A stretch of DNA of 64,000 nucleotides. Origin: Methanobacteriota archaeon. GTDB taxonomy: Archaea; Thermoplasmatota; Thermoplasmata; SG8-5; JAGLSY01. Position 1 is the stretch's first letter; each line of letters starts with the position of its first letter. A model generated the notes under the pieces. That model had not been told where the DNA came from. It made no database searches and saw only the letters and a program-made list of their open reading frames with translations. The stretch spans positions 288,001 to 352,000 of the forward strand of contig JAEHCQ010000001.1 in NCBI GenBank assembly GCA_020696385.1, read 5' to 3'. Positions 12,877 to 34,292 of this stretch are shown piece after piece. The position numbers and the translations under genes were made by a program.

Positions 12877-15111
<2,235 letters not shown>

Positions 15112-16974: not shown

Positions 16975-16975
16975 C

Positions 16976-18253
16976 TTATTTACCTCCTTTCAAAGCCATG
17001 GAAACAATGTTCGTCATGTGAGTCTCCGGTCCATAGACCTCGATGTCCAGACCGATCTCTTCCTTTAGGGCTCCGATGTTCTTCAATCCAGCTGCATAAT
17101 TCGGTCCGCCCCTTCTGACATATATCTTGACATTCTGTTTCTTCAGTCTGTCACCGTATTCGCGAAGTGCTCGAATGATGCCAGTGAAAGTTTTAGCAAC
17201 ATCTGTGAAGTTGGCGATACCTCCGCCAACTATCAGGTACTTGCCCTTCTTATTCGGTTTCTGGGTCATCAGGTCCAGTATGGTCTTCGCATAAAGGTAA
17301 GTGAATTCCTCATTGGGATTTCCAGAGTATTCACCATAATTGGCCATCTCATCCATGAAGCCCAGATCGGTGATCGTGTCAGCGTAGATAACGGAAGCTC
17401 CGCCACCTGCGACCATGGTCCATATCCTTCCTTCTGGGTTCAATACGGTTAATTTCAGGGAAGAGCCGGTCTTTCCATCCAGCATGTCGATATACTCCTC
17501 CTCCGGAGTCCTTATTCTGCCAAATGGTGATGGGAACTCGACATCGCCCCATTTCTTGCCAGAAACAAATCGAGCAGTATCATCCAGCTTGGCAGCCAGA
17601 TCAAGTGGGTAAACATCCTTTCCCACGACAACCACTGGGTTTATCTCCAGATAAGCGAAGTTCAGGTCTGCGTAGAACTTGTACATGCCCTCGAAGAACT
17701 CTGCCAGCATCTTCTTGCGATCCTTTGGAGCCTTGGCCACGAGCTTCTTCTCAAACTCAGCGGCTGTTGGCATTTCACCCACTGGCACGAGCATCTTGGT
17801 CGCCTTCGCATCAATATCTCCAACATCCACTCCTCCTTCATGGTAGAAAAGAACAAGGTCGCCTTCCAATACCGAGGTAATGGCGAAGTAATACTCATCC
17901 TTCTGCTCATGTGGTATGAAGGGCTCGACAATGAAATGATCCAGTATGCCAGTTGTCTTTCCAACTGTGACTTTCTTGCTCATCCTTGCCTTGATCCATT
18001 TCTCGGCTTCTTTCCAGTCCGTATTAAGCAAAAGCAGCTTGCTCTTGCCTCGCCTCTTGATAAGCTGGTCTGGCTTCACGACCAACTTCTCCTTCAATAA
18101 CCATTTGTACTTATTTGGTAATTTCTTCATATCAGTCTCTGGTCCGATGGTGATATACCTGTCCTTGACAGGGTATTTACCGCCAGTGTAATCTTTCAAT
18201 AGGCGGGCCATCATCTTCTTTCCGTCCGCCTCTCTTATTGCTTTTTGTGCCAT
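16976..18253 (-). CDS. aclB: ATP citrate lyase beta subunit
   Basis: [48 protein letters not shown] and RRGGPNY motifs; abuts aclA. Confidence 0.95.
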
Positions 18254-18341
18254 TCTTTATTCCTCCTCTTTTTATTTTCTCTCGATATTCATTATTTTTT
18301 GGATATGTATATCTCATTCCTTAACGGGTAGGGCAATAGCC

Positions 18342-20276
18342 CTACTCCTTCACGGTGTAGGCCAGTAGTCCACCCTCGCATAGGATCTCCTTCTGTCTGT
18401 CCGATAAACTGTAGACCAATTCCAGTTCAATTCCCTTGGTCTTATTGACAAGGATAACTGGCTCACTGGCCATGATCTTCTGCTTGATACCAGGCATCTC
18501 GATCTCATCGCCCTGATCGACCTTGTCATAATCAGCCTCATTCTTGAAGGCCAGTGACACTATCCCGAAGTTCACAAGATTAGCCGCATGGATCCTCTCG
18601 ACGGATTTCGCGATAACGGCTTTCACACCAAGATACATGGGGCAAAGTGCCGCGTGCTCTCGTGAACTACCCTGGCCGTATGATTTCCCGGCCATGATGA
18701 TATTGTGTCTGCCTTTCTGCTTGTTCTCCATCGATCGTGTTGGGAAAGTGGTGTCCACTGGCTCGAAAACATATTCAGAATATTTTGGAACATTGGATCG
18801 ATACTTCAACCTGGCTCCTGCTGGCATGATATGGTCGGTGGTTATATTGTCCCCGACCTTGAGCATGATGTCTCCGATGATATCATCGGACATCCGATCA
18901 TTGCTTGGAGGGTTACCGATATTCGGACCCCTGTACACCTCGACATTGGATGGAGCATCCTGTGGGAATATGAACATGGAATCATCGATCAGGAAATTAT
19001 CTGGCATGTCCACATTCGGGAAATCAAGACCTGCAGTTCGGGGGTCTGTGAAAGTACCAGCTACTGCGGAAACAGCCGCGACCTCGGGGCTTATCAGATA
19101 AACCTGCGCGCTCTTTGTCCCGCTCCTTCCCTCGAAATTCCTATTATTCGTCCTGAGGGATATGGCATCGGTCTTCGGGCTCTGGTGATTTCCAATGCAA
19201 AAGCCGCATGCGGATTCCAATACCCTGGCACCACTGTCAATAAGGTCTGCCAGATATCCTTCCTTGGCGATCATCTGAAGCACCTGTCTTGAACCAGGGG
19301 CTATTCCGAATGATGTGTCTGGATGGGCTCGCTTGCCCTTCATTATCTTGGCAACCGTCACCATGTCCTTGTAGGATGAATTGGTGCATGAGCCAACGAG
19401 AACCTGATCCACTTTGGTGCCTGCCATCTCACTCACCTTGATGACCTTTCCCGGGCTATGAGGAGCGGCGGCCATTGGCTCGATCGTGCTTAGATCGAGA
19501 TCGATGACCTTGTCGTATTCCGCGTCATCGTCTGCGGCCATCGCTGTCCAGTCGCCTTCACGACCCTGTGCTCGAAGAAACTTGCGAGTTTCTTCATCTG
19601 AAGGGAATAAAGAAGTGGTGACTCCCATTTCGGCTCCCATATTCGTGATGGTAGCTCTCTCGGGAACTGATAAGGTGGCAACTCCAGGGCCAGCATATTC
19701 CATTATCACACCAACATTGCCCTTGACACTGAATATCTCCAGCATTTTCAGAACTACGTCCTTCGCGCTGACCCAGTCTGAAAGCTTGCCCACCAGGTTT
19801 ATCTTGTACACCCTGGGGCATGTGATGTAAAATGGTCCACCACCCATGGCGACTGCGACATCCAAACCGCCAGCACCGATGGAGATCATACCAATTCCAC
19901 CGCCTGTTGGAGTGTGGCTGTCCGAGCCAGTCATGGTCTTGCCTGGCTTTCCAAATCTCTCAAGGTGTACCTGGTGGCAAATTCCATTGCCAGCCTTTGA
20001 ATACACGATTCCGAACTTGGCGGCTACGGATTGCAGATATTTATGATCATCCGCATTCTCGAAACCTACCTGGACCGTGTTATGATCGACATAACTTACC
20101 GAAAGCTCGGTCTTGACCTTGTCAAGGCCCATTGCCTCGAATTGCAGATAAGCCATGGTACCTGTCGCGTCCTGGGTCAATGTCTGATCGATCTTGATGC
20201 CGATCTCGTTCCCAGGCACATATTCGCCCACTACCAAATGTTCCTCTAAAATCTTACGTGTCAAACTTCTACCCAT
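18342..20276 (-). CDS. acn: Aconitate hydratase (short ~640-aa type)
   Basis: TQDATGT, DHN, GICHQVH, DSHT, GSCTN, CGFCIG, NRNFEGR, TTDHI and GSSREHA motifs. ORF track start is 20285. Confidence 0.92.
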   Translation of the reverse strand: MGRSLTRKILEEHLVVGEYVPGNEIGIKIDQTLTQDATGTMAYLQFEAMGLDKVKTELSVSYVDHNTVQVGFENADDHKYLQSVAAKFGIVYSKAGNGICHQVHLERFGKPGKTMTGSDSHTPTGGGIGMISIGAGGLDVAVAMGGGPFYITCPRVYKINLVGKLSDWVSAKDVVLKMLEIFSVKGNVGVIMEYAGPGVATLSVPERATITNMGAEMGVTTSLFPSDEETRKFLRAQGREGDWTAMAADDDAEYDKVIDLDLSTIEPMAAAPHSPGKVIKVSEMAGTKVDQVLVGSCTNSSYKDMVTVAKIMKGKRAHPDTSFGIAPGSRQVLQMIAKEGYLADLIDSGARVLESACGFCIGNHQSPKTDAISLRTNNRNFEGRSGTKSAQVYLISPEVAAVSAVAGTFTDPRTAGLDFPNVDMPDNFLIDDSMFIFPQDAPSNVEVYRGPNIGNPPSNDRMSDDIIGDIMLKVGDNITTDHIMPAGARLKYRSNVPKYSEYVFEPVDTTFPTRSMENKQKGRHNIIMAGKSYGQGSSREHAALCPMYLGVKAVIAKSVERIHAANLVNFGIVSLAFKNEADYDKVDQGDEIEMPGIKQKIMASEPVILVNKTKGIELELVYSLSDRQKEILCEGGLLAYTVKE

Positions 20277-20378
20277 GATAATCAATCCTCTGTCTATTCG
20301 ATACTATTTTCAAACCCCCCTTTAACTGTTAATTAAAGGTTATCTATGCTAAGATATCACTGGGTAAAGTAAAAGAGG

Positions 20379-20409
20379 TTATTAAGAGTTTTTATTAAAC
20401 TCTTAATAA
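20379..20409. promoter_or_regulatory. Perfect 13-bp inverted repeat upstream of acn (candidate operator)
   Basis: TTATTAAGAGTTT-ttatt-AAACTCTTAATAA, about 100 bp upstream of the acn start. Confidence 0.5.
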
Positions 20410-20447
20410 TCTATAACTTTCTAAGAAAAATATTTAAAATGAAAGGT

Positions 20448-20474
20448 CGGAGGCCGAAATCACAACGGCCTCCG
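20448..20474 (-). terminator. Terminator hairpin
   Basis: CGGAGGCCG/CGGCCTCCG stem 10 bp past the stop at 20485; T-rich tail on the minus strand. Confidence 0.65.
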
Positions 20475-20484
20475 TTTATCTGTT

Positions 20485-21834
20485 TCATAGATCGCTGACA
20501 AAGGCCCCGGACATAGCGGCATCGTCTTTGAATTCGTCTGTCCAGTCATATCTGGAATCATACTCCTTCTTGTGATGCTTGTCAAAGTTCGAAAGGAAGC
20601 GGTTCTGATGCTTCTTCCAAATCTCTGGGCTGGTCAATCTCGTTGTGGCCATCTGATTGGATATGTCATACGATGTCACACTGTCCATGTCCTCGAAGGC
20701 CATCTTGGCGAAATTCTGGACAGCCTTCCTTGATTCTGCCAATACGGATACCAATAGGTCATCCTCCCCAAGAGTGTATGATACATAGGTAAGGTAAACA
20801 TTGTCTGGATACGCATATCCCGTGATCTTGGAGCGAATTGCTTGGTAATGCTTTGGAAGAACCCGTAAAGTTATGAGGAACCTGAACAGGCCTTCAGGAT
20901 GTTGTTTGGGCATCAGAAAATACGTTGGTTCGAGCATGGGTATGGTCCTTGTTTTGCTGACCGAGCTCATGTTCTGCATATTGTCCACAACGAAGTTCTT
21001 GAGATCTTCGAAATTGTTCACTTCAAAGATCACTGATGAATAATTCTTCTTCTCTGGCCTTGAAGCATAGAGCGGTTTGATATGCTCTGTTTCGAACTTG
21101 GGAACATCTGTCTTTATCTCATCCCATAATTTGGTCATTCCAGTCTTGCCAAACATCCTCACTATGACCGTGAAGGAATCTTTCTCGCTGGCATATTTTT
21201 TGAAGAGATCTGGGTTCTTTAAGGATCCGCCCTCTCCCGCAGGAGCTGAATAAATGAACCTGTCCGTATGGGCATTCATCTCGTTCTGAGGGAGCATAGG
21301 CAACCTTCGAACTATCTTCGAGATATCCATAGCATTGACTCCTTTGATGGAATTTATCTTATCATTAGCAAACTTATTTGCAGCTTCCCTGTCCTTTGCG
21401 AACATTGAAACAATAATGTCATCGTCCCCAAATGAATAGGAAACATAATTGACGAAGGCATTGCCATCTGTCTTGGTTGCCGCGATATTATCATATACTG
21501 ATTTGTAATTTTCAGGGTCCACCCTCAGAACGGCTATGTATCGATCCATATCTTCTGGATGTCCCTCTGGAAGTGGGAAATATATCGGGCTCATAATTGG
21601 GATGGTACGGGTCTGGCTAACTGAAGCCATGGCCATAACGTCCTTCAGGAAAACATTCTCCACAGCCTCGAACTTCTTCACATCCAGAAGTATGCTGACA
21701 TATCTCTTGCCTTCCTGACGAAGAGCATACAGGGGCTTTACATCGTCCCAATATAGATTTCTCTTCTCGCTCTCAAACACATTACAGAAATTACTCAATC
21801 CACCTTTTGGAAATAATCTAACTAACACTAACAT
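20485..21834 (-). CDS. Internally duplicated protein of tandem Lrp/AsnC ligand-binding (RAM)-like domains, no HTH seen
   Basis: The two halves align (KPLYA, SVS.TRTIP, HPE, LRV.P, YVSY..G.DD). The GDDDII...KINSIKGV pattern resembles AsnC C-terminal domains. Confidence 0.65.
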   Translation of the reverse strand: MLVLVRLFPKGGLSNFCNVFESEKRNLYWDDVKPLYALRQEGKRYVSILLDVKKFEAVENVFLKDVMAMASVSQTRTIPIMSPIYFPLPEGHPEDMDRYIAVLRVDPENYKSVYDNIAATKTDGNAFVNYVSYSFGDDDIIVSMFAKDREAANKFANDKINSIKGVNAMDISKIVRRLPMLPQNEMNAHTDRFIYSAPAGEGGSLKNPDLFKKYASEKDSFTVIVRMFGKTGMTKLWDEIKTDVPKFETEHIKPLYASRPEKKNYSSVIFEVNNFEDLKNFVVDNMQNMSSVSKTRTIPMLEPTYFLMPKQHPEGLFRFLITLRVLPKHYQAIRSKITGYAYPDNVYLTYVSYTLGEDDLLVSVLAESRKAVQNFAKMAFEDMDSVTSYDISNQMATTRLTSPEIWKKHQNRFLSNFDKHHKKEYDSRYDWTDEFKDDAAMSGAFVSDL

Positions 21835-21960
21835 ATCATAATCCTCCCTTATTGACTATGTATATCACAATGGCATTTGTACTATATATATATTCTCATT
21901 TTTGATATATTGTAAATTAATAATTGTTATTTTTTCGCATCCTATAGAAGATATACTGGC

Positions 21961-21974
21961 ATTGCGTAAATTAT
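21961..21974. promoter_or_regulatory. 14-bp motif ATTGCGTAAATTAT, copy 1
   Basis: Exact copy at 27421-27434. Both copies are intergenic and upstream of minus-strand genes in the TCA cluster. Confidence 0.35.
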
Positions 21975-22027
21975 GGGAGATGATGATGAAGAAGACCCTC
22001 GTCCAAAGGGCAAGGGTCTCATACACC

Positions 22028-22897
22028 TTAACCTTCCAATATCCTCTTGGCCGTGACGCCCACATCTGCCGGTGAATCCGCAACCGCGACACCCGCGGCC
22101 CTGAGAGCTTCCTTCTTTTCTGCTGCGGTTCCTTTTCCTCCAGCGATGATGGCACCTGCATGACCCATTCTCTTACCCTTTGGGGCTGTGGATCCGGCTA
22201 TAAATGCGACCACTGGCTTCGTCATGTGGTTCTTGATATATTCAGCTGCAATTTCCTCGTCAGTTCCACCGATCTCACCGATGAGCGCGACCATGTCGGT
22301 GTCTGGGTCATTATTGAACATCTCGAGAGCGTCCCTGTGTGAGGTTCCTATTACGGGATCTCCTCCGATACCGATGCAAGTGCTCTGGCCGATGCCAACT
22401 GCCGTAAGCTGAGCCGCGACCTCGTATGTGAGAGTTCCAGATCGGGATATGACACCGCATTTGCCAGGCATGAAGATACTAACTGGCAAAATACCCATCT
22501 TGCCAACACCTGGTGTGATGATACCAGGGCAATTAGGGCCTATAAGATTTGTCTTGCTGTTCTTCAGCTTGTTCTTGACCTTGACCATGTCCAATGTTGG
22601 AATTCCTTCGGTTATCAGAACCACCAGTTCGAGCTCCGCGTCTATGGCCTCCATGACCGCATCGGCCGCGAAGGGCGATGGAACGAATATGATGGAAGCA
22701 TTGGCGCCAGTCGCGGCTTTTGCATCCGCAACTGTATTGAAACATGGTATTCCCAGAACATCCTGGCCTGCTTTTCCTGGTCTAATGCCAGCGACTACCT
22801 TTGTTCCGCACTCCAGCATCTTCTCCGCATGGAACTGGCCTTCCTTGCCAAGTCCCTGAACCATTACTTTCGTGTGCTCTTTGAGTAATATTGCCAT
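22028..22897 (-). CDS. sucD: Succinyl-CoA synthetase alpha subunit
   Basis: [22 protein letters not shown] and RMGHAGAI motifs. ORF track start is 22906. Confidence 0.95.
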
Positions 22898-22898
22898 A

Positions 22899-24074
22899 TC
22901 ACGCACCTCCTATGCCTTCTGCAAGATCTGCAGCTTTCTTGGCCGCATCCGCAAAGCCCTGGGCTGTGTGGAAGTTCAATCCTGAATTGTTGATTATTTC
23001 CAGGCCCTCTTTGGCATTGGTCCCTTCCAATCTGACAACTATCGGAACTTCAACATTTCCGATATTTCTAATAGCTTCCACAACTCCATTGGCCACCTTG
23101 TCACATCGGACAATTCCACCAAAGATATTGATCAACACGCACTTGACATCCTTGTCGCTCATGAGAATGCGAAAAGCATTCTCCACTCCCTCGGCAGAGG
23201 CGGATCCTCCGACATCGAGGAAATTGGCTGGCTCGCTGCCACACTGCTTGATAAGATCCATGGTGGCCATTGCCAATCCCGCTCCATTCACCATGCAACC
23301 GACCTTGCCATCCAGCTTGATATAATTGAGATCGAACTTGGAAGCCTCGACCTCCAATGGATCTTCCTCACTGATATCACGGAGTTCCACATGGTGCTTT
23401 TGCCTGAATGCGGCATTGTCATCAAAGTTAACTTTCGCATCCAGTGCCATGGCTTCTCCTTCCTTTGTAACGATCATTGGATTGATCTCCGCCATGGAAG
23501 CATCCTCTTCGACGAACATCCTGTAAAGGTTCTGGAGCATCTTCACACCGCCCTTGAAGGCAGTTCCTTCAAGGCCCAATTTGAAGCAAACTTCCCTTGC
23601 CTGGAAAGGCATGAGACCAACAGCTGGATCGATCCAGATCTTGATAATCTTCTCTGGAGTTTCAGCAGCGACCTTTTCAATCTCCACGCCGCCCTCGGTG
23701 GAAGCGATTATCGCAACTCGTGATGTTTCACGATCCATCACGAATCCCAGGTACATCTCGCGGTCGATATTGGCTGCTTTTTCTACAAGAAGACGCTGGA
23801 CCAATTTTCCTTCTGGCCCGGTCTGATGGGTGATCAATGTCATGCCCATTATGTCCTTGGCAGCCTGTTCAGCCTCCTCCACGGTTGGAGTGAACTTCAC
23901 GCCCCCGCCCTTACCCCTGCCGCCGGCATGGATCTGAGCTTTGACAACAACTGGTCCGCCTTTCTCTTCGAAAAATCTTCTTACATCGCCCACTTCTGTG
24001 ACCATTTGTCCTTCTGGTACGGGTATTCCGTACTTGGCAAATATCTCCTTGGCCTGATATTCATGGATCTTCAT
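22899..24074 (-). CDS. sucC: Succinyl-CoA synthetase beta subunit
   Basis: [35 protein letters not shown] and [10 protein letters not shown] motifs. ORF track start is 24092. Confidence 0.95.
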
Positions 24075-24153
24075 TTTATCACCGTCAAACACAGACTAAA
24101 TAGTCCGCATGTACATTTGCAAGGGTAGTGAAAAGTCACTAATAAAGGTTTAT

Positions 24154-24216: not shown

Positions 24217-24813
24217 TTAGACACCCAGCGTTTCCTTGAATATCTTCTCCATCTGCGCTTTTGTCTTGGCATTGACCACGTCGTATATCGAATCACCATG
24301 CGCGTCCATGGACACGACCAGTGGACCGAATTCCTTGGCCTCGAAGACCCAGACGGCCTCAGGCATGCCCAGTTTATCAAGATAATAAACTGTCTTCACC
24401 TTTCCAAGACCTTTAGCGGCAAGAGCTCCGGCTCCTCCAGTGAATGAAACGTATGCGACATTGTGCTTCTTGAGTGCGGCCAGTGTGAGCGGTCCCATGC
24501 CGCCCTTGCCTATTATCAGCTTCACCGGGAACATGTCCAGGAACTTGGGCTCCAGGGTTTCCATCCTGTAGCTGGTCGTTGGTCCAGCGGATACAACTTG
24601 CCACTCATCGCCTTCCTTTTTCATCACAGGTCCTGCATGATAAAGCCCAAGGCCAGTCATGTCAAAACCCTCGACACCGCCGTCCTCCATCAGTTCCATG
24701 TGAGCCTCGTCACGAGCGGTGAAAACAGTACCGCTCAGGTAAACGACATCATTGACTTTCAACTTGGCAATTGTCTCTTCATCAACTGGTGTGGTTAATC
24801 TGTATTCGGTCAT
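24217..24813 (-). CDS. Class I fumarate hydratase / tartrate dehydratase family, beta subunit
   Basis: TARDEAH, AGPTTS.RM, IIGKGGM and LGMPEAVW motifs. Confidence 0.9.
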   Translation of the reverse strand: MTEYRLTTPVDEETIAKLKVNDVVYLSGTVFTARDEAHMELMEDGGVEGFDMTGLGLYHAGPVMKKEGDEWQVVSAGPTTSYRMETLEPKFLDMFPVKLIIGKGGMGPLTLAALKKHNVAYVSFTGGAGALAAKGLGKVKTVYYLDKLGMPEAVWVFEAKEFGPLVVSMDAHGDSIYDVVNAKTKAQMEKIFKETLGV

Positions 24814-25674
24814 TTATACCACCTCGCCATTCTTGTCAATTTTAATGCTCTGGCGTCTGTCGCACCAACACTGAACCACCATCCCGACCGGGAAAGTTGC
24901 CGGATGCCTATTTGTATATTCGATCTGAACCGCGAGAGATGTCGTATCTCCGCCCATTCCCATCGCTCCCACACCAAGTGAATTTATCATATCGAGAAGT
25001 TCCTTCTCCATTGCCGCGATCTCGGGCATTGGATTTGGCTCATCCAGTGGTCGGAGAAGTGCCTTTTTTGCCAGCTTGATCGCGATGTCCGCCCCTCCGC
25101 CAATTCCGATACCGATGACTGTTGGCGGACATGGTTTGCCACCCGCAAATTGAACCTGCTCGATTATCTTCTGTTTCATGACCTTGAAACCCTGCGCCGG
25201 TGTCAGCATCCAGAGCTTGGACATGTTCTCGCTTCCACCGCCTTTTGGGAAGACATAGACAGTTGCTCCATCGCCTTCCACCATGTCGATGGTCATAGCG
25301 GGCATATTGAACCCCAAATTGTTCTTGGGATTAGTGCCATCAAATGGATTCACCGTGTTCGGCCTCAATGGAACATCCATCGTGGCCTTCGCTATGGCCT
25401 TTGGAACGAGCTTTACCAGTTCCTTCAGGTATGGGAAATCATAGCCAGCTTTTATGAAGAATATCTGCACACCAGTATCCTGGCACATGGGAGCTTGTCC
25501 ATCGTGGGCCAGTTGGATATTTGTCAGTATGGCTTCTAATTGATTTTTAGCTGTTTCGTTCGTCTCTTTCGCATGCGCTTCCTTGATCTTCTCGTGCACA
25601 TCTGGCGGAAGCTCGATCACTCCATCCCTCATGCCCTTAACCAGAGCCTTCAATACTTTTTCTTCATCAAACAT
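24814..25674 (-). CDS. Class I fumarate hydratase / tartrate dehydratase family, alpha (Fe-S) subunit
   Basis: PMCQDTG, PKGGGSENMS, GGKPCPP and VQCW motifs; adjacent to the beta subunit. Confidence 0.9.
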   Translation of the reverse strand: MFDEEKVLKALVKGMRDGVIELPPDVHEKIKEAHAKETNETAKNQLEAILTNIQLAHDGQAPMCQDTGVQIFFIKAGYDFPYLKELVKLVPKAIAKATMDVPLRPNTVNPFDGTNPKNNLGFNMPAMTIDMVEGDGATVYVFPKGGGSENMSKLWMLTPAQGFKVMKQKIIEQVQFAGGKPCPPTVIGIGIGGGADIAIKLAKKALLRPLDEPNPMPEIAAMEKELLDMINSLGVGAMGMGGDTTSLAVQIEYTNRHPATFPVGMVVQCWCDRRQSIKIDKNGEVV

Positions 25675-26933
25675 TATGCATCACCTTTTACAAGTGGTAT
25701 AGTAAGGCTACCGGCTGGCATTATCACGAGATTAGGTTCCCTGCCCTTGCCTTTCATCTCCACGATCGCGGCTTCCAGTGCTTCCTGCACAGTTCCGAAA
25801 GGCTTCAGATGTGCCTTTCGCATCATCTCATCTGGCAGATCGGTAACCCCGTAAATACTGGCCCAGGTTCCTATCTGAGCCATCTTCGCCGCCTTGTGGT
25901 ATCCTAACTTGTACTCGCCCTCCAGCTTCTTCATTATTTCCTGTGGAGTGGCGGCACTTCCAAGCAGGTCGAGGAAGGCTTCTTCTCCCACTCCCATCCT
26001 GCACTTGGAGACAATGATGGTAACGCCGCCATCCTTCAATGCCAATTTACTGTTATCCAGTGCTTTCTGGCTCTGATAAAGATCGATGTCCATCGGATAC
26101 GGAGCTACGGAAATGACGATATCTGCTTTTTCAGCCAGTGGCACGCAGAACACTTCGTTCGCGCGCTCGATAGCCGCGTCGAAGCTCTGGAAAAGATCTC
26201 CAGCAGTAACTGCGTAAATACTGTGGTCGCCAGTCAGTACAGTCTGAATGGAAAACACATTGATATCCTTCAGCACGTTCATCGCATCTATCATGTCCTC
26301 ATGAACTGGATTTCCCTCAAGAGCCAGTGAGCGAGCGGAATCACTGAGCGCGGCCTTGTGGTTCATCTCGATTGTTTTGTAAGAGGCGACACCCGGAAGG
26401 AATGCTTTCCGACCCCCGGTGTACCCTGCGAAATAATGCGGCTCCACACTTCCAATAACTAGAACATTCTTGATCTCCGGCACGATCTTATTAAGGTACA
26501 TCTCGGTGCCATTTTTGGAAACACCCAGATACACCATATCTTCATCTTTTCGCGCATCGTGCGCGATTATTTTATCTTTAACTTCTTCGTACATGTCCCC
26601 GAATATGAATTGGTATTCCTCGTCAGTAGGTGCGCGGTGTACGCCAGTCGCCACAATGTAAGTGACATCCGCATGCGCGGTCAAGTCCTTCCGAAGAAGT
26701 TCCAACACCTTCTTCGTCGGTGTTGGTCTTGTCGCGTCATTCACGATGACCAGCATTCTCTCGGACTTCTTTGCAAAATCAGAAAAGGTATCCGTTCCTA
26801 TTGGATTCGCAAGCGCGTTATCCAGCACTTTGGCCTCGTCCTGAACATCGACCGAATTCGGCATCAGGATCGTATGCGGTAAATCAAAATCGATCTCAAC
26901 ACTTTCCTTTCCATATGGAATATTGAATTTCAT
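25674..26933 (-). CDS. larA: LarA-family nickel-pincer 2-hydroxy-acid racemase (substrate uncertain)
   Basis: NDATRP, ATGVHR, EPHYFAGYTGGRK, IEMNH and DLYQSQKA motifs; TAATG overlap with the fumarase alpha start. Confidence 0.88.
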   Translation of the reverse strand: MKFNIPYGKESVEIDFDLPHTILMPNSVDVQDEAKVLDNALANPIGTDTFSDFAKKSERMLVIVNDATRPTPTKKVLELLRKDLTAHADVTYIVATGVHRAPTDEEYQFIFGDMYEEVKDKIIAHDARKDEDMVYLGVSKNGTEMYLNKIVPEIKNVLVIGSVEPHYFAGYTGGRKAFLPGVASYKTIEMNHKAALSDSARSLALEGNPVHEDMIDAMNVLKDINVFSIQTVLTGDHSIYAVTAGDLFQSFDAAIERANEVFCVPLAEKADIVISVAPYPMDIDLYQSQKALDNSKLALKDGGVTIIVSKCRMGVGEEAFLDLLGSAATPQEIMKKLEGEYKLGYHKAAKMAQIGTWASIYGVTDLPDEMMRKAHLKPFGTVQEALEAAIVEMKGKGREPNLVIMPAGSLTIPLVKGDA

Positions 26934-27037
26934 CTTATTTCTCCCTGTGGGAAGGGAGAAAGAGAATGAGATTTATAACCGTATCTGTTAGATTCGAGTA
27001 GGAGGGCTGCGTTATTCAAGCCCCCTATACCAAAACA

Positions 27038-27340
27038 CTATTCCCCAGCAGGTCGCATGATCCTGGTATTCACATTGAGTACAAGCTGGTTCAGATGTTC
27101 CAATCCTTTCTGCCATTCTGGATCTTCGAACAATCGGTCATAGTCCTTGGTTGTCTCGAACTCGATAGTGAAAATAATATGACTCGAATCATCGCACCAG
27201 ACATTTAACTTCGCATCTATTTTCTCGCATATGTCCATCACCATGCAACTGTATTCTTCATCAAAAATATAGTTCATGTATTTCTTACTGGCTTCTTCAT
27301 CTTTGGGAATATCATATTCCATAAACCAAAGTACTGGCAT
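27038..27340 (-). CDS. Small protein, probable dimeric alpha/beta-barrel (NIPSNAP-like) fold
   Basis: 100 aa; GAGGTGA SD; the pattern IIFTIEFET...Y..LF.DPEWQK...NTRIMRP is typical of such barrels. Fold is inferred. Confidence 0.6.
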   Translation of the reverse strand: MPVLWFMEYDIPKDEEASKKYMNYIFDEEYSCMVMDICEKIDAKLNVWCDDSSHIIFTIEFETTKDYDRLFEDPEWQKGLEHLNQLVLNVNTRIMRPAGE

Positions 27341-27420
27341 CTGTCATCACCTCTTCTGAATTTCAGTATGTTCATTTGTCTTAATAGCCTTAACACAATT
27401 CGCATATATATACATTCATT

Positions 27421-27434
27421 ATTGCGTAAATTAT
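27421..27434. promoter_or_regulatory. 14-bp motif ATTGCGTAAATTAT, copy 2
   Basis: Exact copy of 21961-21974, in the divergent promoter region between 27340 and 27506. Confidence 0.35.
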
Positions 27435-27505
27435 ATATCATCTTCAGCAATAGGTTTAGGCTATAGTTTAGGGGCTTGGCTCCTATGATTAAGAGGATGA
27501 TGTAA

Positions 27506-28942
27506 ATGTCCGAAGAAATGTTCAAGGAATTGCAGGAGCTTTTAGGAGAGAACTTCACCACCAGCACGGCCGCCAGATATGCTTATTCATCAGATGCCAG
27601 CATATACAGGGCGATGCCCGATGCGGTGGCAAGGCCGATGAATACCGAAGAGGTATCCAAAATTGTGAAACTGGCCAATAAGTACAAGGTGCCGATCACA
27701 CCGCGAGGAGCGGGAACTGGCCTCTGTGGAGCAGCAGTTCCTATCAAGGGTGGCATCACCCTGGACATGCAAGCCATGAACAAAATTAAAAGTATAACAC
27801 CCGAGAATTTATTCTGTATAGTCGAGCCAGGTGTCATTTACGATCACCTGAACAATGAGCTGAAAAGCGCGGGATACCAGTTCCCTGGTTCTCCAGGCAG
27901 TGCGGAAGCCGCGAATATCGGTGGCATGGTGTCACTGAATGCCAGCGGTATGAGAGCCATCAAATACGGCGCGACAAGGGATTATGTTCTCGGCCTGGAA
28001 GTGGTTCTTCCAACCGGAGAGATCATGAGGGTCGGCACGCACACTCTGAAGAACAGCTCCGGCTACCAATTGGAGAAATTATTCGTGGGCTCCGAGGGCA
28101 CACTGGGTATCATTACCGAAGTTACTTTGAAGATCGTCGCTTTACCAAAGGCAGTGGCCGCGGCTTTGGTCAGCTTTGACAAGGTGGAGAAAGCGGGCCA
28201 GGCAATTTCCAATATAATCGCACATCCTATTATTCCAAGTTCCATGGAGATCATGGATAATACCTGTATCACCGCGGCAAACCGCGGGATCGATGCCGGA
28301 TTGCCAGATGTCCCAGCAATTCTGATAATCGAGGTTGATGGTCCCATCGAGGAAGTCGGCCGTGAGATCCGACAGGTCGAAGAGGTCTGTAAAGCAAGTG
28401 GAGCCACCCATATCATCGTATCCGATGATAAAGCCGTTTATGGCCTCTGGCACGAGGCCAGAAAGTCCGTCCTGCCAGCTCTGGGAGGATTCAGCCCGGA
28501 TCTGAAGATCGTATCACTTGCGGATGACATGGGTGTTCCGATCTCCAGGGTGGCTGATGCGGTCATAGGCTTCAAGGAAATATCCGATAGGAACAAGGTC
28601 ATAATTGCCACTTACGGTCATGCCAGTGATGGTAACCTTCACACTAAATTCCTCATCGATCCGAGCAAGGAAGATGACTGGAAAAGGGCGGAAAAGGCCG
28701 TGGAGGAGATCTATGATCTAGTTCTTTCCCTCGATGGGACAGTGACTGGCGAGCACGGTGTGGGAATGGCCAAAGCCCCTTACATGAAGAAGGAAAGGGC
28801 CACCGCGATCAAGACCATGAAGGCCATCAAGGACGCTCTCGATCCGAATAATATCATGAACCCAGGCAAGATGTTCGAATGGGAGAGCGATCACATAATT
28901 ATGAATCTCAGATACCCCGCGGAGGTGAACTTCGATGAGTGA
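27506..28942 (+). CDS. FAD-linked D-2-hydroxy-acid dehydrogenase, GlcD/Dld family
   Basis: PRGAGTGL, GSEGTLGIITE, GHASDGNLH, GEHGVG and DPNNIMNPGK motifs. Confidence 0.9.
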   Translation: MSEEMFKELQELLGENFTTSTAARYAYSSDASIYRAMPDAVARPMNTEEVSKIVKLANKYKVPITPRGAGTGLCGAAVPIKGGITLDMQAMNKIKSITPENLFCIVEPGVIYDHLNNELKSAGYQFPGSPGSAEAANIGGMVSLNASGMRAIKYGATRDYVLGLEVVLPTGEIMRVGTHTLKNSSGYQLEKLFVGSEGTLGIITEVTLKIVALPKAVAAALVSFDKVEKAGQAISNIIAHPIIPSSMEIMDNTCITAANRGIDAGLPDVPAILIIEVDGPIEEVGREIRQVEEVCKASGATHIIVSDDKAVYGLWHEARKSVLPALGGFSPDLKIVSLADDMGVPISRVADAVIGFKEISDRNKVIIATYGHASDGNLHTKFLIDPSKEDDWKRAEKAVEEIYDLVLSLDGTVTGEHGVGMAKAPYMKKERATAIKTMKAIKDALDPNNIMNPGKMFEWESDHIIMNLRYPAEVNFDE

Positions 28943-30113
28943 TGAAAAGAAGTATATCAAGGGCGATAAGCTGAAGGCATTGTATGACCAAACACTCCTC
29001 TGCACGTCCTGTGGATATTGTAAATCCGTATGCCCGGCCTTCAAGGGCACATTATGGGACCACAATACAGCCAGATCGAAGATGGTGCTGGCCTATGGTC
29101 TGTTGCAAGGCGACATACCAGTGGATGATTCAGTTGTTCAATCCATATTCGAATGCACCACCTGCGGAGATTGTATGCGCAGGTGTCCTTCCAATGTCAA
29201 GACAGTCGATGTGCTCATGGCTGCCAGGCAGGAACTGGCAGGCTTACATGAGGTTCCAGAGACCATGGAATTGGCTCTGGAAAATATTGAGAAGTTCGGC
29301 AATCCACAGGGAGAGCCAGCATCAGCCAGGGAGGAGTTCCTTCCAGATGAGGCAAAGGCCAAGCTGAGAACTGGCGGAGATGTACTGGTATTCCTGGGAT
29401 GCGTCGCTTCCAATACGGATATGAAGGTGACATCCGCCATTTTCAAGATACTGGAAAGGGCAGGAGTGAGCTACACCACACTTGGAGAGAAGGAGCCATG
29501 CTGTGGCTTCCTCAATTATCTGGCTGGTTACGAATCCGATGCCTTTGGAAAAAGTCTTCTGGAGCAGATCGAGACATTGAACCCGAGACCGAAAATGGTG
29601 GTCACGCCCTGTCCCGGATGCTACAGGACACTCCATCACATCTATCCCGAGAGCGGAGTGGATCTCGGCCTGGATTCCAGGCACATACTGGAATTCTTTG
29701 ACGAGCTTATCGAGAAAGGCGATCTCATTGTTACCAAGAAGCTAGAGGGGAATGTCCTTTACCACGACCCTTGTGATCTCGGTCGCCATGCGGAGATGTA
29801 TGACGAGCCCAGGAAATTGCTTTCACATTTTGCCGAAGTGAAGGAATTCAAATTCAATAGAGAACAAAGCCATTGCTGTGGAGGTGGGGGCGGTCTGCAA
29901 TCCACCAATTATGATATTTCATCATCCATGGCAAAAGCCAGACTTACCGAGGCCAATGAATTGGAGGGGGACTTCATTGTTTCCGCATGCCCGGCATGTA
30001 AATCCATGTTCTCCAATGCCGCATCTGATTTCAAAAAGGAGACTGGCAAGAAGTTCAAGGTCAGGGATCTGGTCGAGATAGTTCACAAGAACACCAAAGG
30101 CAGAGAAAGTTGA
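28935..30113 (+). CDS. Fe-S oxidoreductase with 2x[4Fe-4S] and two CCG domains (GlcF/HdrD-like)
   Basis: CTSCGYC..VCP, CTTCGDC..RCP, EPCCG, YHDPCDLGR and CCGGGGG motifs; overlaps the GlcD-like gene. Confidence 0.9.
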   Translation: MSDEKKYIKGDKLKALYDQTLLCTSCGYCKSVCPAFKGTLWDHNTARSKMVLAYGLLQGDIPVDDSVVQSIFECTTCGDCMRRCPSNVKTVDVLMAARQELAGLHEVPETMELALENIEKFGNPQGEPASAREEFLPDEAKAKLRTGGDVLVFLGCVASNTDMKVTSAIFKILERAGVSYTTLGEKEPCCGFLNYLAGYESDAFGKSLLEQIETLNPRPKMVVTPCPGCYRTLHHIYPESGVDLGLDSRHILEFFDELIEKGDLIVTKKLEGNVLYHDPCDLGRHAEMYDEPRKLLSHFAEVKEFKFNREQSHCCGGGGGLQSTNYDISSSMAKARLTEANELEGDFIVSACPACKSMFSNAASDFKKETGKKFKVRDLVEIVHKNTKGRES

Positions 30114-31985: not shown

Positions 31986-34292
31986 TCACATAAAAGATAT
32001 GACTTCCATTTCCCTTTCCAATATCTTAAGGTCCTGTGGGTCAAGTGTGCCAGGTGTCACAGACATCAGGAATATGGAATCACTTTCTGAAACATCATCT
32101 ATCAATCTTCTAAGGAATCTAAGGACAGCATCAAAACTGCTATTGCTTATGAGATATTCCAGGCCATCTATCAAAAGTATGCCTTTCTTGCCAGTATTCA
32201 GAATATCCTCGATCTTGTAAATGATCCTCTCAAGTGCTGGCTGTATCGTGTCCTCCGTGCTTTCCCTGTCAGTCAACCATAATAATTCCGCTTCGCCAAA
32301 ATCATAATCTCCCTTGAGGCGTCGGGGATTGGTCCTGCTTATACACATACCACCATATCCAAGGTCAAGTGTTTCGACAAATATCTCGAAACATTTTTCG
32401 GGACGATCCTCCTCCACCAAATAGCTTCTGGATATCTTCAAACTCTCTGATTTGGCTGTATTATCAAAGATCTCCGCCTCCTTTTCTTTGGGCTCTTCTT
32501 TGACAGGTTCTATATCTTCATCCTTCAGAACAGATTCCGCAAGGGATACGGTCGGGTTTGTGTTCATCAATTCACAATATGCTATGACCTTGTTCAGGGC
32601 TCCTTCGAGGAGTCTCACATTGCTGGTGTATATCTTGGCGATGAATTTCAATACATCATCCCCGATAACAAAACCAGCAACCTCTGACTTTTGCCTCAAT
32701 ATACTAACCCTGGTTTCAAGATCCGGAGCCTGCATATCAGTCACCAGGCCAGATTCAAAACGCGATACAAGTCTATCCTTTAGACCAGATATTTCTTTCA
32801 ATGGGCAGTCACTGGTCATGACTATCTGCTTATCCTCCTTGTGAAGGGCATTGAAGGTATGGAACAGCTCGTCCTGAACGGCTTCCTGATCTGCAATGAA
32901 TTGTATATCGTCTATCAAAAGAATGTCGAGCTTTCGATATCTGCTTCTGAAGGCCTTCATCTTATTGGATTTGGTAGCCTCGATGAATTCCTGCATGAAC
33001 TTCTCAGTGGTTATATAAAGGACCTTTCTGTCCTCATTATTACTGGCCACGTAATTCCCTATGGCATTGATCATGTGGGTCTTACCCAGGCCAACTCCAC
33101 TGCATATCAATAATGGATTGTAAACTGAAGAATCTGCTTTGGCAACAGCCAGTGAAGCTGCTTGTGAGAATCTGCTATTATCCCCGACAACGAAATTCTC
33201 AAAAGTGAATGTGGATATGAGCCCAGTATCCTTTGTCTTGAGGATATCGTCGAGCTTTCCCTTGTCTGTTTTCGCATTCTTGACAGCTCCGCATATTGGA
33301 CATTCATCAAGGCCACCCATTTCTCCACCACAGATACTGCATATATCCTCAGGTTCTCCGGCAGATGTTCTCTTCTTATTCATGACAATGGGGTCTGGCT
33401 CAGGGGTGGATTTGAATACTGGTTCTATGCTGGGAGCAGGTTTCTCAATTACTGGTTTGTCAGCAACCACAGGTTCTGCTTCCATAACCTGTTCTTTCTC
33501 TGGTTCTATGATCTCAGGTTCCACTGGATCATCCAATAGGTGTATCTTATCACTGAGATCCTCCATAGCGGCCTCTATGGCGGTTATCTTCATTGGATTC
33601 ATGAAAAGAGCCTGGAGCTTTTTCACCTCGGTCCCATGACCGATGGTGTCCATACTTTCCAGATCCCCCTTGAAAAATTCTATCTTCTTTATGTTCTCGG
33701 TGAATTCATCAAATATATGTTTCGCATCTACCATCGAGCCTTCAAGAGCATCCTGAAGGTTGTTCACGATATAACCTTCAGATTTCCATCCCTCCATTCT
33801 ATTTTGAAGGGCTTTCAATTCCTTGCTCGAACCTGTTTTCTTTGGTTCTTCATTATTGGTATCTCCCCACGAGATCCCCACTTTAGCTCGTGGTTTTTTC
33901 TTTGCAGATGGTTTCAGAACAGTGATGGAAGATTCTGGATGGGTAGAGATAAACTCATCCACCTCCAATCTACCTCTAACCTCTATCTCGCATTTATCAT
34001 CATAAGAATCCACCCAGGAAAGCTTGAGGGCCTTCTCGCCCTGCTTTGTTATTTGCAGGTCGGATCCGTCTCTTCTACCATAAACTGCTGCTGCTGGCAC
34101 TCCATTCTTGATTATCAGATATCCCTCAGATATCTGCCCATCTCTCTTCAGCATGCTCTTGACATAGCCCGTGAACTCATATTTCTTGAGCTTGATGAGA
34201 CTTTTCTTTAGAGTATCCTCTCCGCCATGGATGGTTCGGATCAACTTGCCCTCGGGCAGGAAATCATTAGACGTTAACAGCACCTCGCTCAA
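31986..34292 (-). CDS. DnaA-like AAA+ ATPase fusion: DUF2226-like, helical, Zn ribbon, DnaA domain III, DUF835
   Basis: aa 357-591: FTFENFVVG, YNPL..SGVGLGKTH, LLIDDIQF, ELFHTFN, TSD, RLVSRFESGL, PDLETR, SNVRLLEGAL. aa ~620-766: SYLVEE, CISRTNP, LWLT, LLIDGLEYLI, ILERE (DUF835 pattern). No domain IV. Confidence 0.88.
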   Translation of the reverse strand: MSEVLLTSNDFLPEGKLIRTIHGGEDTLKKSLIKLKKYEFTGYVKSMLKRDGQISEGYLIIKNGVPAAAVYGRRDGSDLQITKQGEKALKLSWVDSYDDKCEIEVRGRLEVDEFISTHPESSITVLKPSAKKKPRAKVGISWGDTNNEEPKKTGSSKELKALQNRMEGWKSEGYIVNNLQDALEGSMVDAKHIFDEFTENIKKIEFFKGDLESMDTIGHGTEVKKLQALFMNPMKITAIEAAMEDLSDKIHLLDDPVEPEIIEPEKEQVMEAEPVVADKPVIEKPAPSIEPVFKSTPEPDPIVMNKKRTSAGEPEDICSICGGEMGGLDECPICGAVKNAKTDKGKLDDILKTKDTGLISTFTFENFVVGDNSRFSQAASLAVAKADSSVYNPLLICSGVGLGKTHMINAIGNYVASNNEDRKVLYITTEKFMQEFIEATKSNKMKAFRSRYRKLDILLIDDIQFIADQEAVQDELFHTFNALHKEDKQIVMTSDCPLKEISGLKDRLVSRFESGLVTDMQAPDLETRVSILRQKSEVAGFVIGDDVLKFIAKIYTSNVRLLEGALNKVIAYCELMNTNPTVSLAESVLKDEDIEPVKEEPKEKEAEIFDNTAKSESLKISRSYLVEEDRPEKCFEIFVETLDLGYGGMCISRTNPRRLKGDYDFGEAELLWLTDRESTEDTIQPALERIIYKIEDILNTGKKGILLIDGLEYLISNSSFDAVLRFLRRLIDDVSESDSIFLMSVTPGTLDPQDLKILEREMEVISFM

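Follow-up and report, generated by a model that had tools for sequence, protein, structure and literature searches.

In a 64,000-nucleotide stretch of the archaeal contig JAEHCQ010000001.1 (assembly GCA_020696385.1, positions 288,001 to 352,000; this whole stretch is called the window), the gene of a LarA-family nickel-pincer enzyme is joined to class I fumarase genes and faces a divergent pair encoding a GlcD-type flavoprotein and an iron-sulfur protein with CCG domains. On balance, and with some reserve, we favour a pathway in which FumAB, LarA and GlcD/CCG interconvert fumarate, L-malate, D-malate and oxaloacetate in place of NAD-dependent malate dehydrogenase (Mdh), so that known enzyme families appear in a new pathway role. 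The LarA/GlcD/CCG trio recurs in many related archaea, gut methanogens included. The genes concerned are laid out as follows (lengths in amino acids, aa; ORF, open reading frame; TCA, tricarboxylic acid; ACL, ATP-citrate lyase; IDH, isocitrate dehydrogenase).

24217-24813, minus strand: FumB, class I fumarate hydratase beta subunit (Pfam Fumerase_C, 131.7 bits)
24814-25674, minus strand: FumA, class I fumarate hydratase alpha subunit (Pfam Fumerase, 309.7 bits)
25674-26933, minus strand: LarA, LarA-family nickel-pincer enzyme, 419 aa (Pfam Lar_N, 191.7 bits; LarA_C, 60.2 bits)
27038-27340, minus strand: 100-aa ORF upstream of LarA, before the divergent GlcD; no Pfam match
27506-28942, plus strand: GlcD, FAD-dependent D-2-hydroxyacid dehydrogenase family, 478 aa (Pfam FAD_binding_4 and FAD-oxidase_C)
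28935-30113, plus strand: CCG/Fe-S protein, HdrD/GlcF/TfrB-like (Pfam Fer4_8 and two CCG domains)
12877-24092, minus strand: TCA gene cluster downstream of FumB, with SucC, SucD, an AsnC-domain protein, aconitase, AclB, AclA and monomeric IDH (Pfam, NCBIfam)
15112-16974, same strand as the LarA cluster: AclA
16976-18253, same strand as the LarA cluster: AclB
20485-21834, minus strand: AsnC-domain protein, 449 aa, with an Lrp/AsnC ligand-binding domain

The stop codon of LarA and the start codon of FumA have base 25674 in common (TAATG; the sequence reads gatgcaTAATGtttgat), which bears out the translational coupling pointed out in an earlier note made from the DNA letters, and FumA and FumB abut with zero gap. 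LarA is the head of the TCA gene cluster, since SucC, SucD, the AsnC-domain protein, aconitase, AclB, AclA and IDH all lie downstream on the same strand. The GlcD and CCG genes overlap by 8 nt and form the divergent GlcD/GlcF-like pair that the same note had seen, lying on the plus strand opposite the minus-strand larA-fum genes across the gap 27341-27505. FumAB is the sole fumarase of the genome by tblastn, and its alpha subunit passes the fumarate hydratase model NF004885 (330.7 bits; cut-off 276) while staying under the cut-off of the TtdA model (229.7 bits; cut-off 365). FumB exceeds the cut-off of TIGR00723 (189.2 bits; 145.15) and falls below that of the fumarate hydratase model NF004708 (218.9 bits; 269). 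A class II fumarase was considered and rejected, the single Lyase_1 family member of the genome being PurB.

Substrate signatures of LarA and GlcD

The Lar_N and LarA_C scores of LarA both exceed the Pfam cut-offs, and its nickel-pincer motifs are indeed intact: in an alignment to L. plantarum LarA all cofactor and catalytic residues are present, with H99 and H166 as the two catalytic histidines, K176 as the cofactor tether, H192 as the Ni ligand, R69 at the place of Arg75, and the carboxylate binders Y286, Q287 and K290. These residues are invariant in an alignment of 28 sequences. The top NCBIfam model is the malate racemase LarAH6 (NF052593, 374.8 bits); LarAH10 and LarAH5 score 293 and 287 bits, and with 300 bits the cut-off of 460 of the lactate racemase model NF033504 is not reached. 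The closest solved structure is the malate racemase Mar2 (LarAH6 of Thermoanaerobacterium thermosaccharolyticum, 6d6z; E 5e-65), with which, as with Mar1 and LarAH62, the window protein has the fold family and the cofactor and catalytic residues in common, although it belongs to a distinct and tightly conserved clade.

The available text of Desguin et al. (PMC7583248) names three specificity regions in LarA proteins, helix 11, helix 14 and the loop after the catalytic His, and proposes that the helix-14 Lys binds the second carboxylate of malate. Two of the three Mar2 motifs are matched in the window protein. Helix 11 carries Q289-K290 as in Mar2, where L. plantarum LarA has V-K, and helix 14 carries H346-K347 as in Mar2, where lactate racemase has the Trp of its DQW motif (Trp358). 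The earlier note had given that DQW motif as the counterpart of LGYHKAAK, and the alignment agrees: LGYHKAAK (residues 343-350) stands opposite LGAHKAA in Mar2 and ipDQWtaq in L. plantarum LarA. Of the clade's 102 rows, 98 retain the motif set HYF / YQSQK / LGYHK (the exceptions are L105_2 and L179_2, which are one gene seen twice, L108 and L122), and members of the clade occur in Thermoplasmata, Methanolobus, Methanococcoides, two Borrarchaeum (Asgard) metagenome-assembled genomes (MAGs), Campylobacter, Veillonella and Desulfobacterales. We conclude from these signatures that LarA is probably a malate racemase. Predicted malate racemases make up the largest LarA group, archaea included, according to the available part of a later LarA survey from the group of Desguin et al. 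(PMC11770544), which states no physiological role for them there; nor is a TCA-cycle role of Mar enzymes proposed in the accessible text of either study (PMC7583248, PMC11770544). As a side observation, one relative (L179:10580-11712, the same contig as L105) has a second LarA paralogue (45% identity) directly after the first, in which the helix-11 Lys that binds carboxylate is exchanged for His (YQSQH); this gene is truncated at the contig end.

For GlcD, the closest solved relatives are LctD (7qh2), mouse LDHD (8jdc) and a glycolate oxidase, all with E about 1e-82 to 1e-81, and the glycolate oxidase model TIGR00387 is not reached (425.5 bits; cut-off 567.9). In mouse LDHD the glycolate moiety of the substrate is held by Arg347, His398, His405, Glu442 and His443 (PMC10589216, available text), and all of these residues (R, H, H, E-H) are aligned in window GlcD. 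The side-chain pocket is different: at the positions of Val101, Trp351, Ser365 and Ile407 of mouse LDHD, window GlcD has Leu, Leu, Ser and Lys, and the hydrophobic pocket is thus not retained. In D2HGDH, an enzyme of D-2-hydroxyglutarate (D-2-HG), the same source describes a polar and positive pocket with Thr390, Asn443 and Lys401 (PMC10589216). The window Lys falls at the Asn443 position and a Leu at the Thr390-equivalent, these equivalences with human D2HGDH (6lpn) being drawn through mouse LDHD and not from a residue-level alignment of the two proteins. Like D2HGDH, window GlcD would be a GlcD/VAO-family FAD enzyme turning D-malate into oxaloacetate, an activity described for D2HGDH in the available text of PMC10589216; unlike D2HGDH, it is nearer to LDHD and LctD, has the pocket Lys instead of the Thr/Asn/Lys set, and has a CCG Fe-S partner.

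The pocket Lys, which is the K of GNLHTKF, is found in 24 of the 25 GlcD orthologue rows with data (among which L105 and L179 are one contig), the sole exception, with Ile, being L175 from family f12, which is without LarA; none of the three GlcD paralogues in the window's genome has this Lys. Such a positive charge in the predicted side-chain pocket fits a dicarboxylic D-2-hydroxyacid, and we propose that GlcD is a D-malate dehydrogenase, although the Lys is unable to tell D-malate from D-2-HG. As far as residues can tell, LarA and GlcD together point to a dicarboxylic substrate, for instance malate, rather than to lactate.

Gene linkage in related archaea

Proposed here as an electron-transfer subunit, the CCG protein contains a pair of [4Fe-4S] Cys motifs together with two CCG domains, and cysteines account for 17 of the 44 columns invariant across 18 homologues. 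Its best NCBIfam model is TfrB (150.2 bits; cut-off 385), the thiol-oxidising subunit of thiol:fumarate reductase, and GlcF gives 70.7 bits (cut-off 333); no equivalog cut-off is reached. The arrangement of a catalytic subunit with a [4Fe-4S]/CCG subunit is common to TfrAB and HdrD systems, from which the window protein differs in scoring far under their cut-offs.

In 20 larA regions picked by hand, mostly from genomes with long contigs, LarA is followed by a same-strand CCG gene (364-373 aa) in 8 (families f7, f24, f26, f29 and f32) and is joined to CCG in a single ORF of 781-792 aa in 3 (family f9); 1 region is ambiguous and 8 are without an adjacent CCG gene. The fusions consist, by Pfam, of Lar_N, LarA_C, Fer4_8 and two CCG domains, and a large protein search gave at least 17 proteins of 695-789 aa with LarA plus CCG domains. 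The 780-aa protein AIZ55939.1 / A0A0A7LA29 (P0009) of Ca. Methanoplasma termitum, a full LarA homologue fused to a CCG/Fe-S part (compare L147:7881-10226 in genome G085), is annotated as 'HdrD1', 'CoB--CoM heterodisulfide reductase subunit D' and 'nickel-dependent lactate racemase'. A tree of 20 CCG proteins unites those linked or fused to LarA with the CCG protein of Methanococcoides vulcani (support 83/98), where the gene order is larA-glcD-CCG. The window CCG protein is the closest of its genome to this group (36-38% identity; 29-32% for its paralogues). A complex prediction for the window's LarA and CCG protein, with a separate alignment for each, scored 0.12 against a mark of 0.32, which is no evidence either way.

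Linkage with fumarase is also conserved. The entire window arrangement is syntenic in the same-genus locus L046, with a LarA 94% identical, and in the window's order larA lies immediately upstream of fumA in 6 of the 9 LarA-bearing genomes sampled (G000, G002, G006, G007, G012 and G020). Among the best 80 of 195 confirmed larA loci, many of them on short contigs so that counts are lower bounds, fumA is directly 3' of larA in at least 3 (L046, L104, L106) and FumAB lies within ~5 kb in at least 5 further Thermoplasmata loci, frequently accompanied by ACL and IDH; at least 7 of the 80 loci have a GlcD homologue and at least 5 an Mdh homologue. G006 has Mdh ~3 kb upstream of its larA-fumA pair. 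G010 and G020 each have the GlcD-CCG pair divergent from an operon whose first gene is Mdh and which leads, via a gene of AMP-binding_C repeats, to larA; the Mdh, larA, GlcD and CCG genes are therefore all placed at the malate node. Families f7 and f9 encode GlcD orthologues (52-59% identity) in 25/25 and 37/37 genomes, tens of kb from larA. The genes of LarA, GlcD and CCG are linked pairwise in every combination across lineages, by fusion, operon or divergent pair, a classic mark of proteins that work as a single unit. The conservation of linkage on which the earlier note had staked its proposal is thus seen both in the order, as larA-fumA, and across many families, as the LarA/GlcD/CCG association.

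Other neighbours recur. In G010 (C112, locus L179, 1-5086) and G020 (C28, locus L177, 1710-8000), HdrC-, HdrB- and HdrA-like genes follow GlcD-CCG, a hint that the D-hydroxyacid dehydrogenase may have a partner capable of flavin-based electron bifurcation. In at least 31 of the best 80 loci (L048-L084, L090, L096, L108; for example L063:8446-9912), larA diverges from a set encoding a DAO+BFD flavoprotein, Pyr_redox_2 and DUF1667; the flavoprotein comes nearest to the models of type-2 glycerol-3-P oxidase and L-2-HG oxidase and reaches neither cut-off. This DAO / Pyr_redox_2 / DUF1667 cluster is absent from the window's genome and was therefore kept out of the proposed mechanism. A protein of 3-4 AMP-binding_C repeats (429-478 aa) is encoded immediately upstream of larA in three relatives (L161:9672-11009, L162:2718-4007, L179:7475-8911). 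In families f7 and f9, a Pterin_bind (dihydropteroate-synthase-like) gene lies 3' of larA or larA-CCG (L144:10711-11577, L148:10156-12027, L149:9910-11463, L159:6620-7948), which may be coincidence or a tie to pterin or 2-hydroxyglutarate chemistry. In Campylobacter MAGs (L110, L111, L121 and others), a LarA of the same clade is accompanied by larC, a DcuA/DcuB C4-dicarboxylate transporter and Fum/Ttd-like hydratase genes, which suggests a bacterial malate or tartrate uptake pathway. The 449-aa AsnC-domain protein of the window is internally duplicated, both halves matching the same homologues; it is kept between aconitase and sucCD (97% in L046, 51% in L161), recurs near larA in L062, L068 and L076, and has a paralogue on C44. 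Farther off in the window, a 768-aa ORF (31986-34292, minus strand) pairs a bacterial-type DnaA ATPase domain with DUF835, which is unusual for an archaeon.

Malate dehydrogenase and LarA across genomes

The window's genome (2.28 Mb, 94.48% complete, 50 contigs, 10 of them large) gave no match to any of the profiles Ldh_1_N, Ldh_2 and Mqo, which matched in 13, 5 and 2, respectively, of 14 control genomes. Searching it by tblastn with the Mdh proteins of four relatives, all confirmed as Mdh by NCBIfam, gave no match at E<=1e-3, and there is no mdh in the cluster. The absence of mdh that the earlier note had read from the cluster thus holds for the genome in these searches. The 100-aa ORF at 27038-27340, with a homologue only in locus L046 (88% identity), occupies the place that in relatives is taken by Mdh, a TrmB-like gene and the AMP-binding_C-repeat gene. 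Neither an Mdh remnant in 26800-27700 nor remnants of Mdh, TrmB-like or AMP-binding_C genes between larA and glcD were found (best tblastn E = 0.29), and the window locus looks like the mdh-containing locus of relatives minus Mdh.

The genes for the LarA cofactor, whose presence the bypass depends on, are encoded: larC, larE and larB are clustered at C47:60474-62781, with LarB at 231.3, LarE at 260.6 and LarC at 172.3 bits, all exceeding their cut-offs, the LarC frame of 259 aa covering only positions 2-235 of the 375 of its profile. The TCA gene set is otherwise full. Elsewhere in the genome are encoded a SerA-like D-2-hydroxyacid dehydrogenase, a TfrA/SdhA-like flavoprotein adjoining a 2-oxoacid:acceptor oxidoreductase subunit gene, and, away from the window, a complex-I-like (Fpo/Nuo) module with a NuoH/FpoH homologue. 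A methanogenic lifestyle was rejected for this Thermoplasmata archaeon, as there is no McrA in the genome.

In a sample of 251 genomes of the class (completeness >=85%), Lar_N was found in 119 genomes, a count that takes in any LarA subfamily and includes 26 distant ones (<=42% identity to the window protein), Ldh_1_N in 114, Ldh_2 in 30, Mqo in 0 and class I fumarase in 145. Among these 145 fumarase genomes, 101 have LarA and no Mdh (Ldh_1 or Ldh_2), 11 have both, 18 have Mdh and no LarA, and 15 have neither. LarA is thus present in 101 of the 116 Mdh-less fumarase genomes, and 7 of the 119 LarA genomes are without class I fumarase. By family, LarA and Mdh are nearly exclusive: LarA occurs in 25/25 genomes of f7 and 37/37 of f9, with Mdh in 0/25 and 0/37, and in 0/39 of f13 and 0/34 of f20, with Mdh in 39/39 and 34/34, while f16 has Ldh_2 in 5/5 and no LarA. 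Most Mdh-only genomes belong to aerobic acidophile families with class II fumarase, which makes lifestyle a confounder. The Mdh-positive counts of f13 include the unpublished genomes G098, G199 and G260, two of which are among the GlcD matches; these counts and matches are the sole results that draw on the three genomes. Close LarA (>=43% identity) and close GlcD (>=47%) occur together in 75 of the 251 genomes, GlcD alone in 5 and LarA alone in 18.

Proposed pathway and alternatives

In the pathway that we favour, FumAB, assigned by strong homology, would interconvert fumarate and L-malate; LarA, carrying the nickel-pincer nucleotide made by LarBCE, would racemise L- and D-malate by means of its two catalytic histidines; and the GlcD flavoprotein would interconvert D-malate and oxaloacetate. 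Electrons would be exchanged with a partner by way of FAD and the HdrD-like subunit with its [4Fe-4S] and CCG clusters; a thiol/disulfide couple, a quinone and the complex-I-like (Fpo/Nuo) complex encoded elsewhere are candidates for this partner. The CoM/CoB disulfide is unlikely in this organism because its genome lacks McrA. The standard potentials of oxaloacetate/malate (about -170 mV) and CoM-S-S-CoB (about -140 mV) are close, and with a partner at disulfide level the step would therefore be near-reversible. The module could run in the oxidative or the reductive direction, and a near-reversible step could serve a reductive branch, as in methanogens, or equally an oxidative cycle; an incomplete reductive TCA cycle is described for Methanomassiliicoccales in the available text of Borrel et al. 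The nearest functional parallel is Mqo, which also links malate and oxaloacetate by a flavin and without NAD and can coexist with NAD-Mdh (PMC9768450, as far as available), whereas its proteins are unrelated, take L-malate directly with no racemase, and are found in 0/251 genomes of the class.

It had also been suggested that an acceptor of higher potential than NAD+ could drive ACL in the ATP-forming direction, which is speculation. The ATP-forming ACL in it is not new. Moller et al. are said to have described, in 1987, an oxidative citric acid cycle in Desulfobacter postgatei with ACL running in the ATP-forming direction; neither a racemase nor D-malate is known to take part in that cycle.

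Several observations weigh against the pathway. LarA is under both malate racemase cut-offs (374.8 vs 500 bits for LarAH6; 287.3 vs 462), its loop after the catalytic His reads Y167-F168, where Mar2 has Y-K and lactate racemase F-F, and we identified no member of its clade with a known enzyme activity. Human D2HGDH is farther from GlcD (E 2.5e-48) than LDHD, LctD and glycolate oxidase are, and mouse LDHD is inactive on D-malate and D-2-HG, which is ascribed to its hydrophobic pocket (PMC10589216, available text). For the electron partner of the CCG protein there are candidates only. The genome encodes a malic enzyme, which could bypass the step, and at 94.5% completeness an mdh may have been missed. 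In the class, f7 (25) and f9 (37) supply 62 of the 101 genomes with LarA and no Mdh, and these are related genomes, not independent events; 15 fumarase genomes manage with neither protein. Finally, Mdh and the module occur together in 11 of the 145 fumarase genomes, in three of them (G006, G010, G020) in or beside the same locus, and the module is therefore not simply an Mdh substitute. The bypass proposed in the earlier note is thus partly supported: three of the outcomes that would have spoken against it, missing larBCE, an mdh or mqo in the genome and a linkage that is not conserved, did not appear, and the signatures are of dicarboxylate type. The word 'replacing' is too strong, as some relatives keep mdh in the same locus. 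The malic enzyme is a further limit on the proposal.

Other substrates would suit some of the same proteins. GlcD plus Fe-S D-lactate dehydrogenases occur in sulfate reducers, and since the best solved matches of GlcD are LctD and mouse LDHD, LarA could be a lactate racemase feeding a D-lactate dehydrogenase of this kind, or the pair could act on another monocarboxylic 2-hydroxyacid. Here too a nickel-pincer racemase would feed a stereospecific dehydrogenase, yet we give this a slim chance: LarA has neither the F-F loop nor Trp358 and misses the lactate racemase cut-off (300 vs 460 bits), the hydrophobic LDHD pocket is replaced by Leu and Lys, and the context consists of fumarase, Mdh and other TCA genes and not of lactate permease. 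Racemisation of L- and D-2-HG by LarA, with oxidation of D-2-HG to 2-oxoglutarate by GlcD/CCG, either to repair metabolites or to provide a 2-HG stereoisomer while the malate step is handled otherwise, is harder to set aside and in our judgement fairly improbable. A C5 carboxylate would be equally compatible with the pocket Lys, the cluster includes IDH, D2HGDH enzymes are active on both D-2-HG and D-malate (PMC10589216) and the LarA superfamily includes 2-HG racemases (PMC7583248, PMC11770544), in the text available of each. However, the LarA signature is that of Mar (Q-K, H-K) and not the NQT motif given for 2-HG racemase groups in the accessible part of PMC7583248, larA is coupled in translation to fumarase and not to IDH, Mdh sits in the locus of relatives, and LDHD-type enzymes are closer to GlcD than D2HGDH is (E 2.5e-48). 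A tartrate pathway, in which LarA epimerises tartrate stereoisomers and a FumAB-type hydratase dehydrates tartrate to oxaloacetate, seems very improbable, although characterised malate racemases epimerise tartrate too (PMC11770544, available part) and Campylobacter has larA near the DcuB transporter, larC and Fum/Ttd-like genes (35-38% identity): FumA passes the fumarate hydratase cut-off and fails that of TtdA, and the genome, whose TCA set is otherwise full, has no fumarase besides FumAB.

The remaining readings accept malate and differ on what the proteins do with it. The main carbon path might run through malic enzyme and a carboxylase, LarA and GlcD/CCG merely salvaging stray D-malate, for example from promiscuous 2-hydroxyacid dehydrogenases. 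Malic enzyme and the SerA-like dehydrogenase are in the genome, the 15 fumarase genomes without LarA and Mdh evidently manage, and the available text of a reductive TCA (rTCA) reconstruction of another Thermoplasmatota class has only 'mae' at the malate step (PMC12220078), so that the gap is visible in print and unexplained. We nevertheless regard salvage as rather unlikely, since repair explains neither the translational coupling to the sole fumarase inside a TCA cluster nor the fact that almost all fumarase genomes lacking Mdh have LarA (101/116), and for repair alone a racemase would be redundant beside a D-specific dehydrogenase. LarA might instead be the substrate-oxidising subunit of a nickel-pincer malate:acceptor oxidoreductase that passes electrons straight to CCG, as the LarA-CCG fusions and pairs without adjacent glcD in f7, f9, f24, f26, f29 and f32 could be taken to mean. 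This is distinctly unlikely in our view: the orthologue of GlcD is encoded elsewhere in all f7 and f9 genomes, glcD stands between larA and CCG in Methanococcoides, and both histidines for two-sided proton transfer are invariant. We know of no flavin-free route from a hydride carrier to one-electron clusters. A racemase, a D-specific flavoprotein and an electron-transfer subunit therefore fit the linkage better than a flavin-free LarA dehydrogenase, given the invariance of both catalytic histidines.

Beyond the racemase pathway of the window itself, it is possible, though we consider it doubtful, that LarA, Lys-pocket GlcD and HdrD-like CCG form a widespread archaeal substitute for Mdh that connects oxaloacetate and malate, by way of D-malate, to an electron pool at iron-sulfur or disulfide level. 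It would then operate in the majority of anaerobic Thermoplasmata, the methanogenic Methanomassiliicoccales among them; the module is found in Methanococcoides, Methanolobus and Asgard genomes too. The Methanomethylophilaceae fusion 'HdrD1' could act, to name one possibility, as a thiol:oxaloacetate oxidoreductase on the pattern of thiol:fumarate reductase, and part of what has been modelled as energy-conserving heterodisulfide reductase would be a carbon-metabolism enzyme. We found no paper that links LarA-type racemases to the malate dehydrogenase step, fumarase operons or HdrD/CCG proteins, outside the supplements of Desguin 2020, Urdiain-Arraiza 2024 and Borrel 2014, which may list a fumarase/CCG association.

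If the racemase pathway is correct, the malate/oxaloacetate step would proceed in a way not described before, via the 'unnatural' D-enantiomer, by a nickel-pincer enzyme and without NAD. It would account for the apparent lack of Mdh in many genomes of anaerobic Thermoplasmata, give malate racemases a physiological role and make central metabolism in these archaea nickel-dependent. Cultured organisms carry the module, which makes direct testing possible. The reading of 'HdrD' genes in Methanomassiliicoccales would change as well, and models of methanogen energy conservation built on them may need to account for the LarA-CCG fusion.

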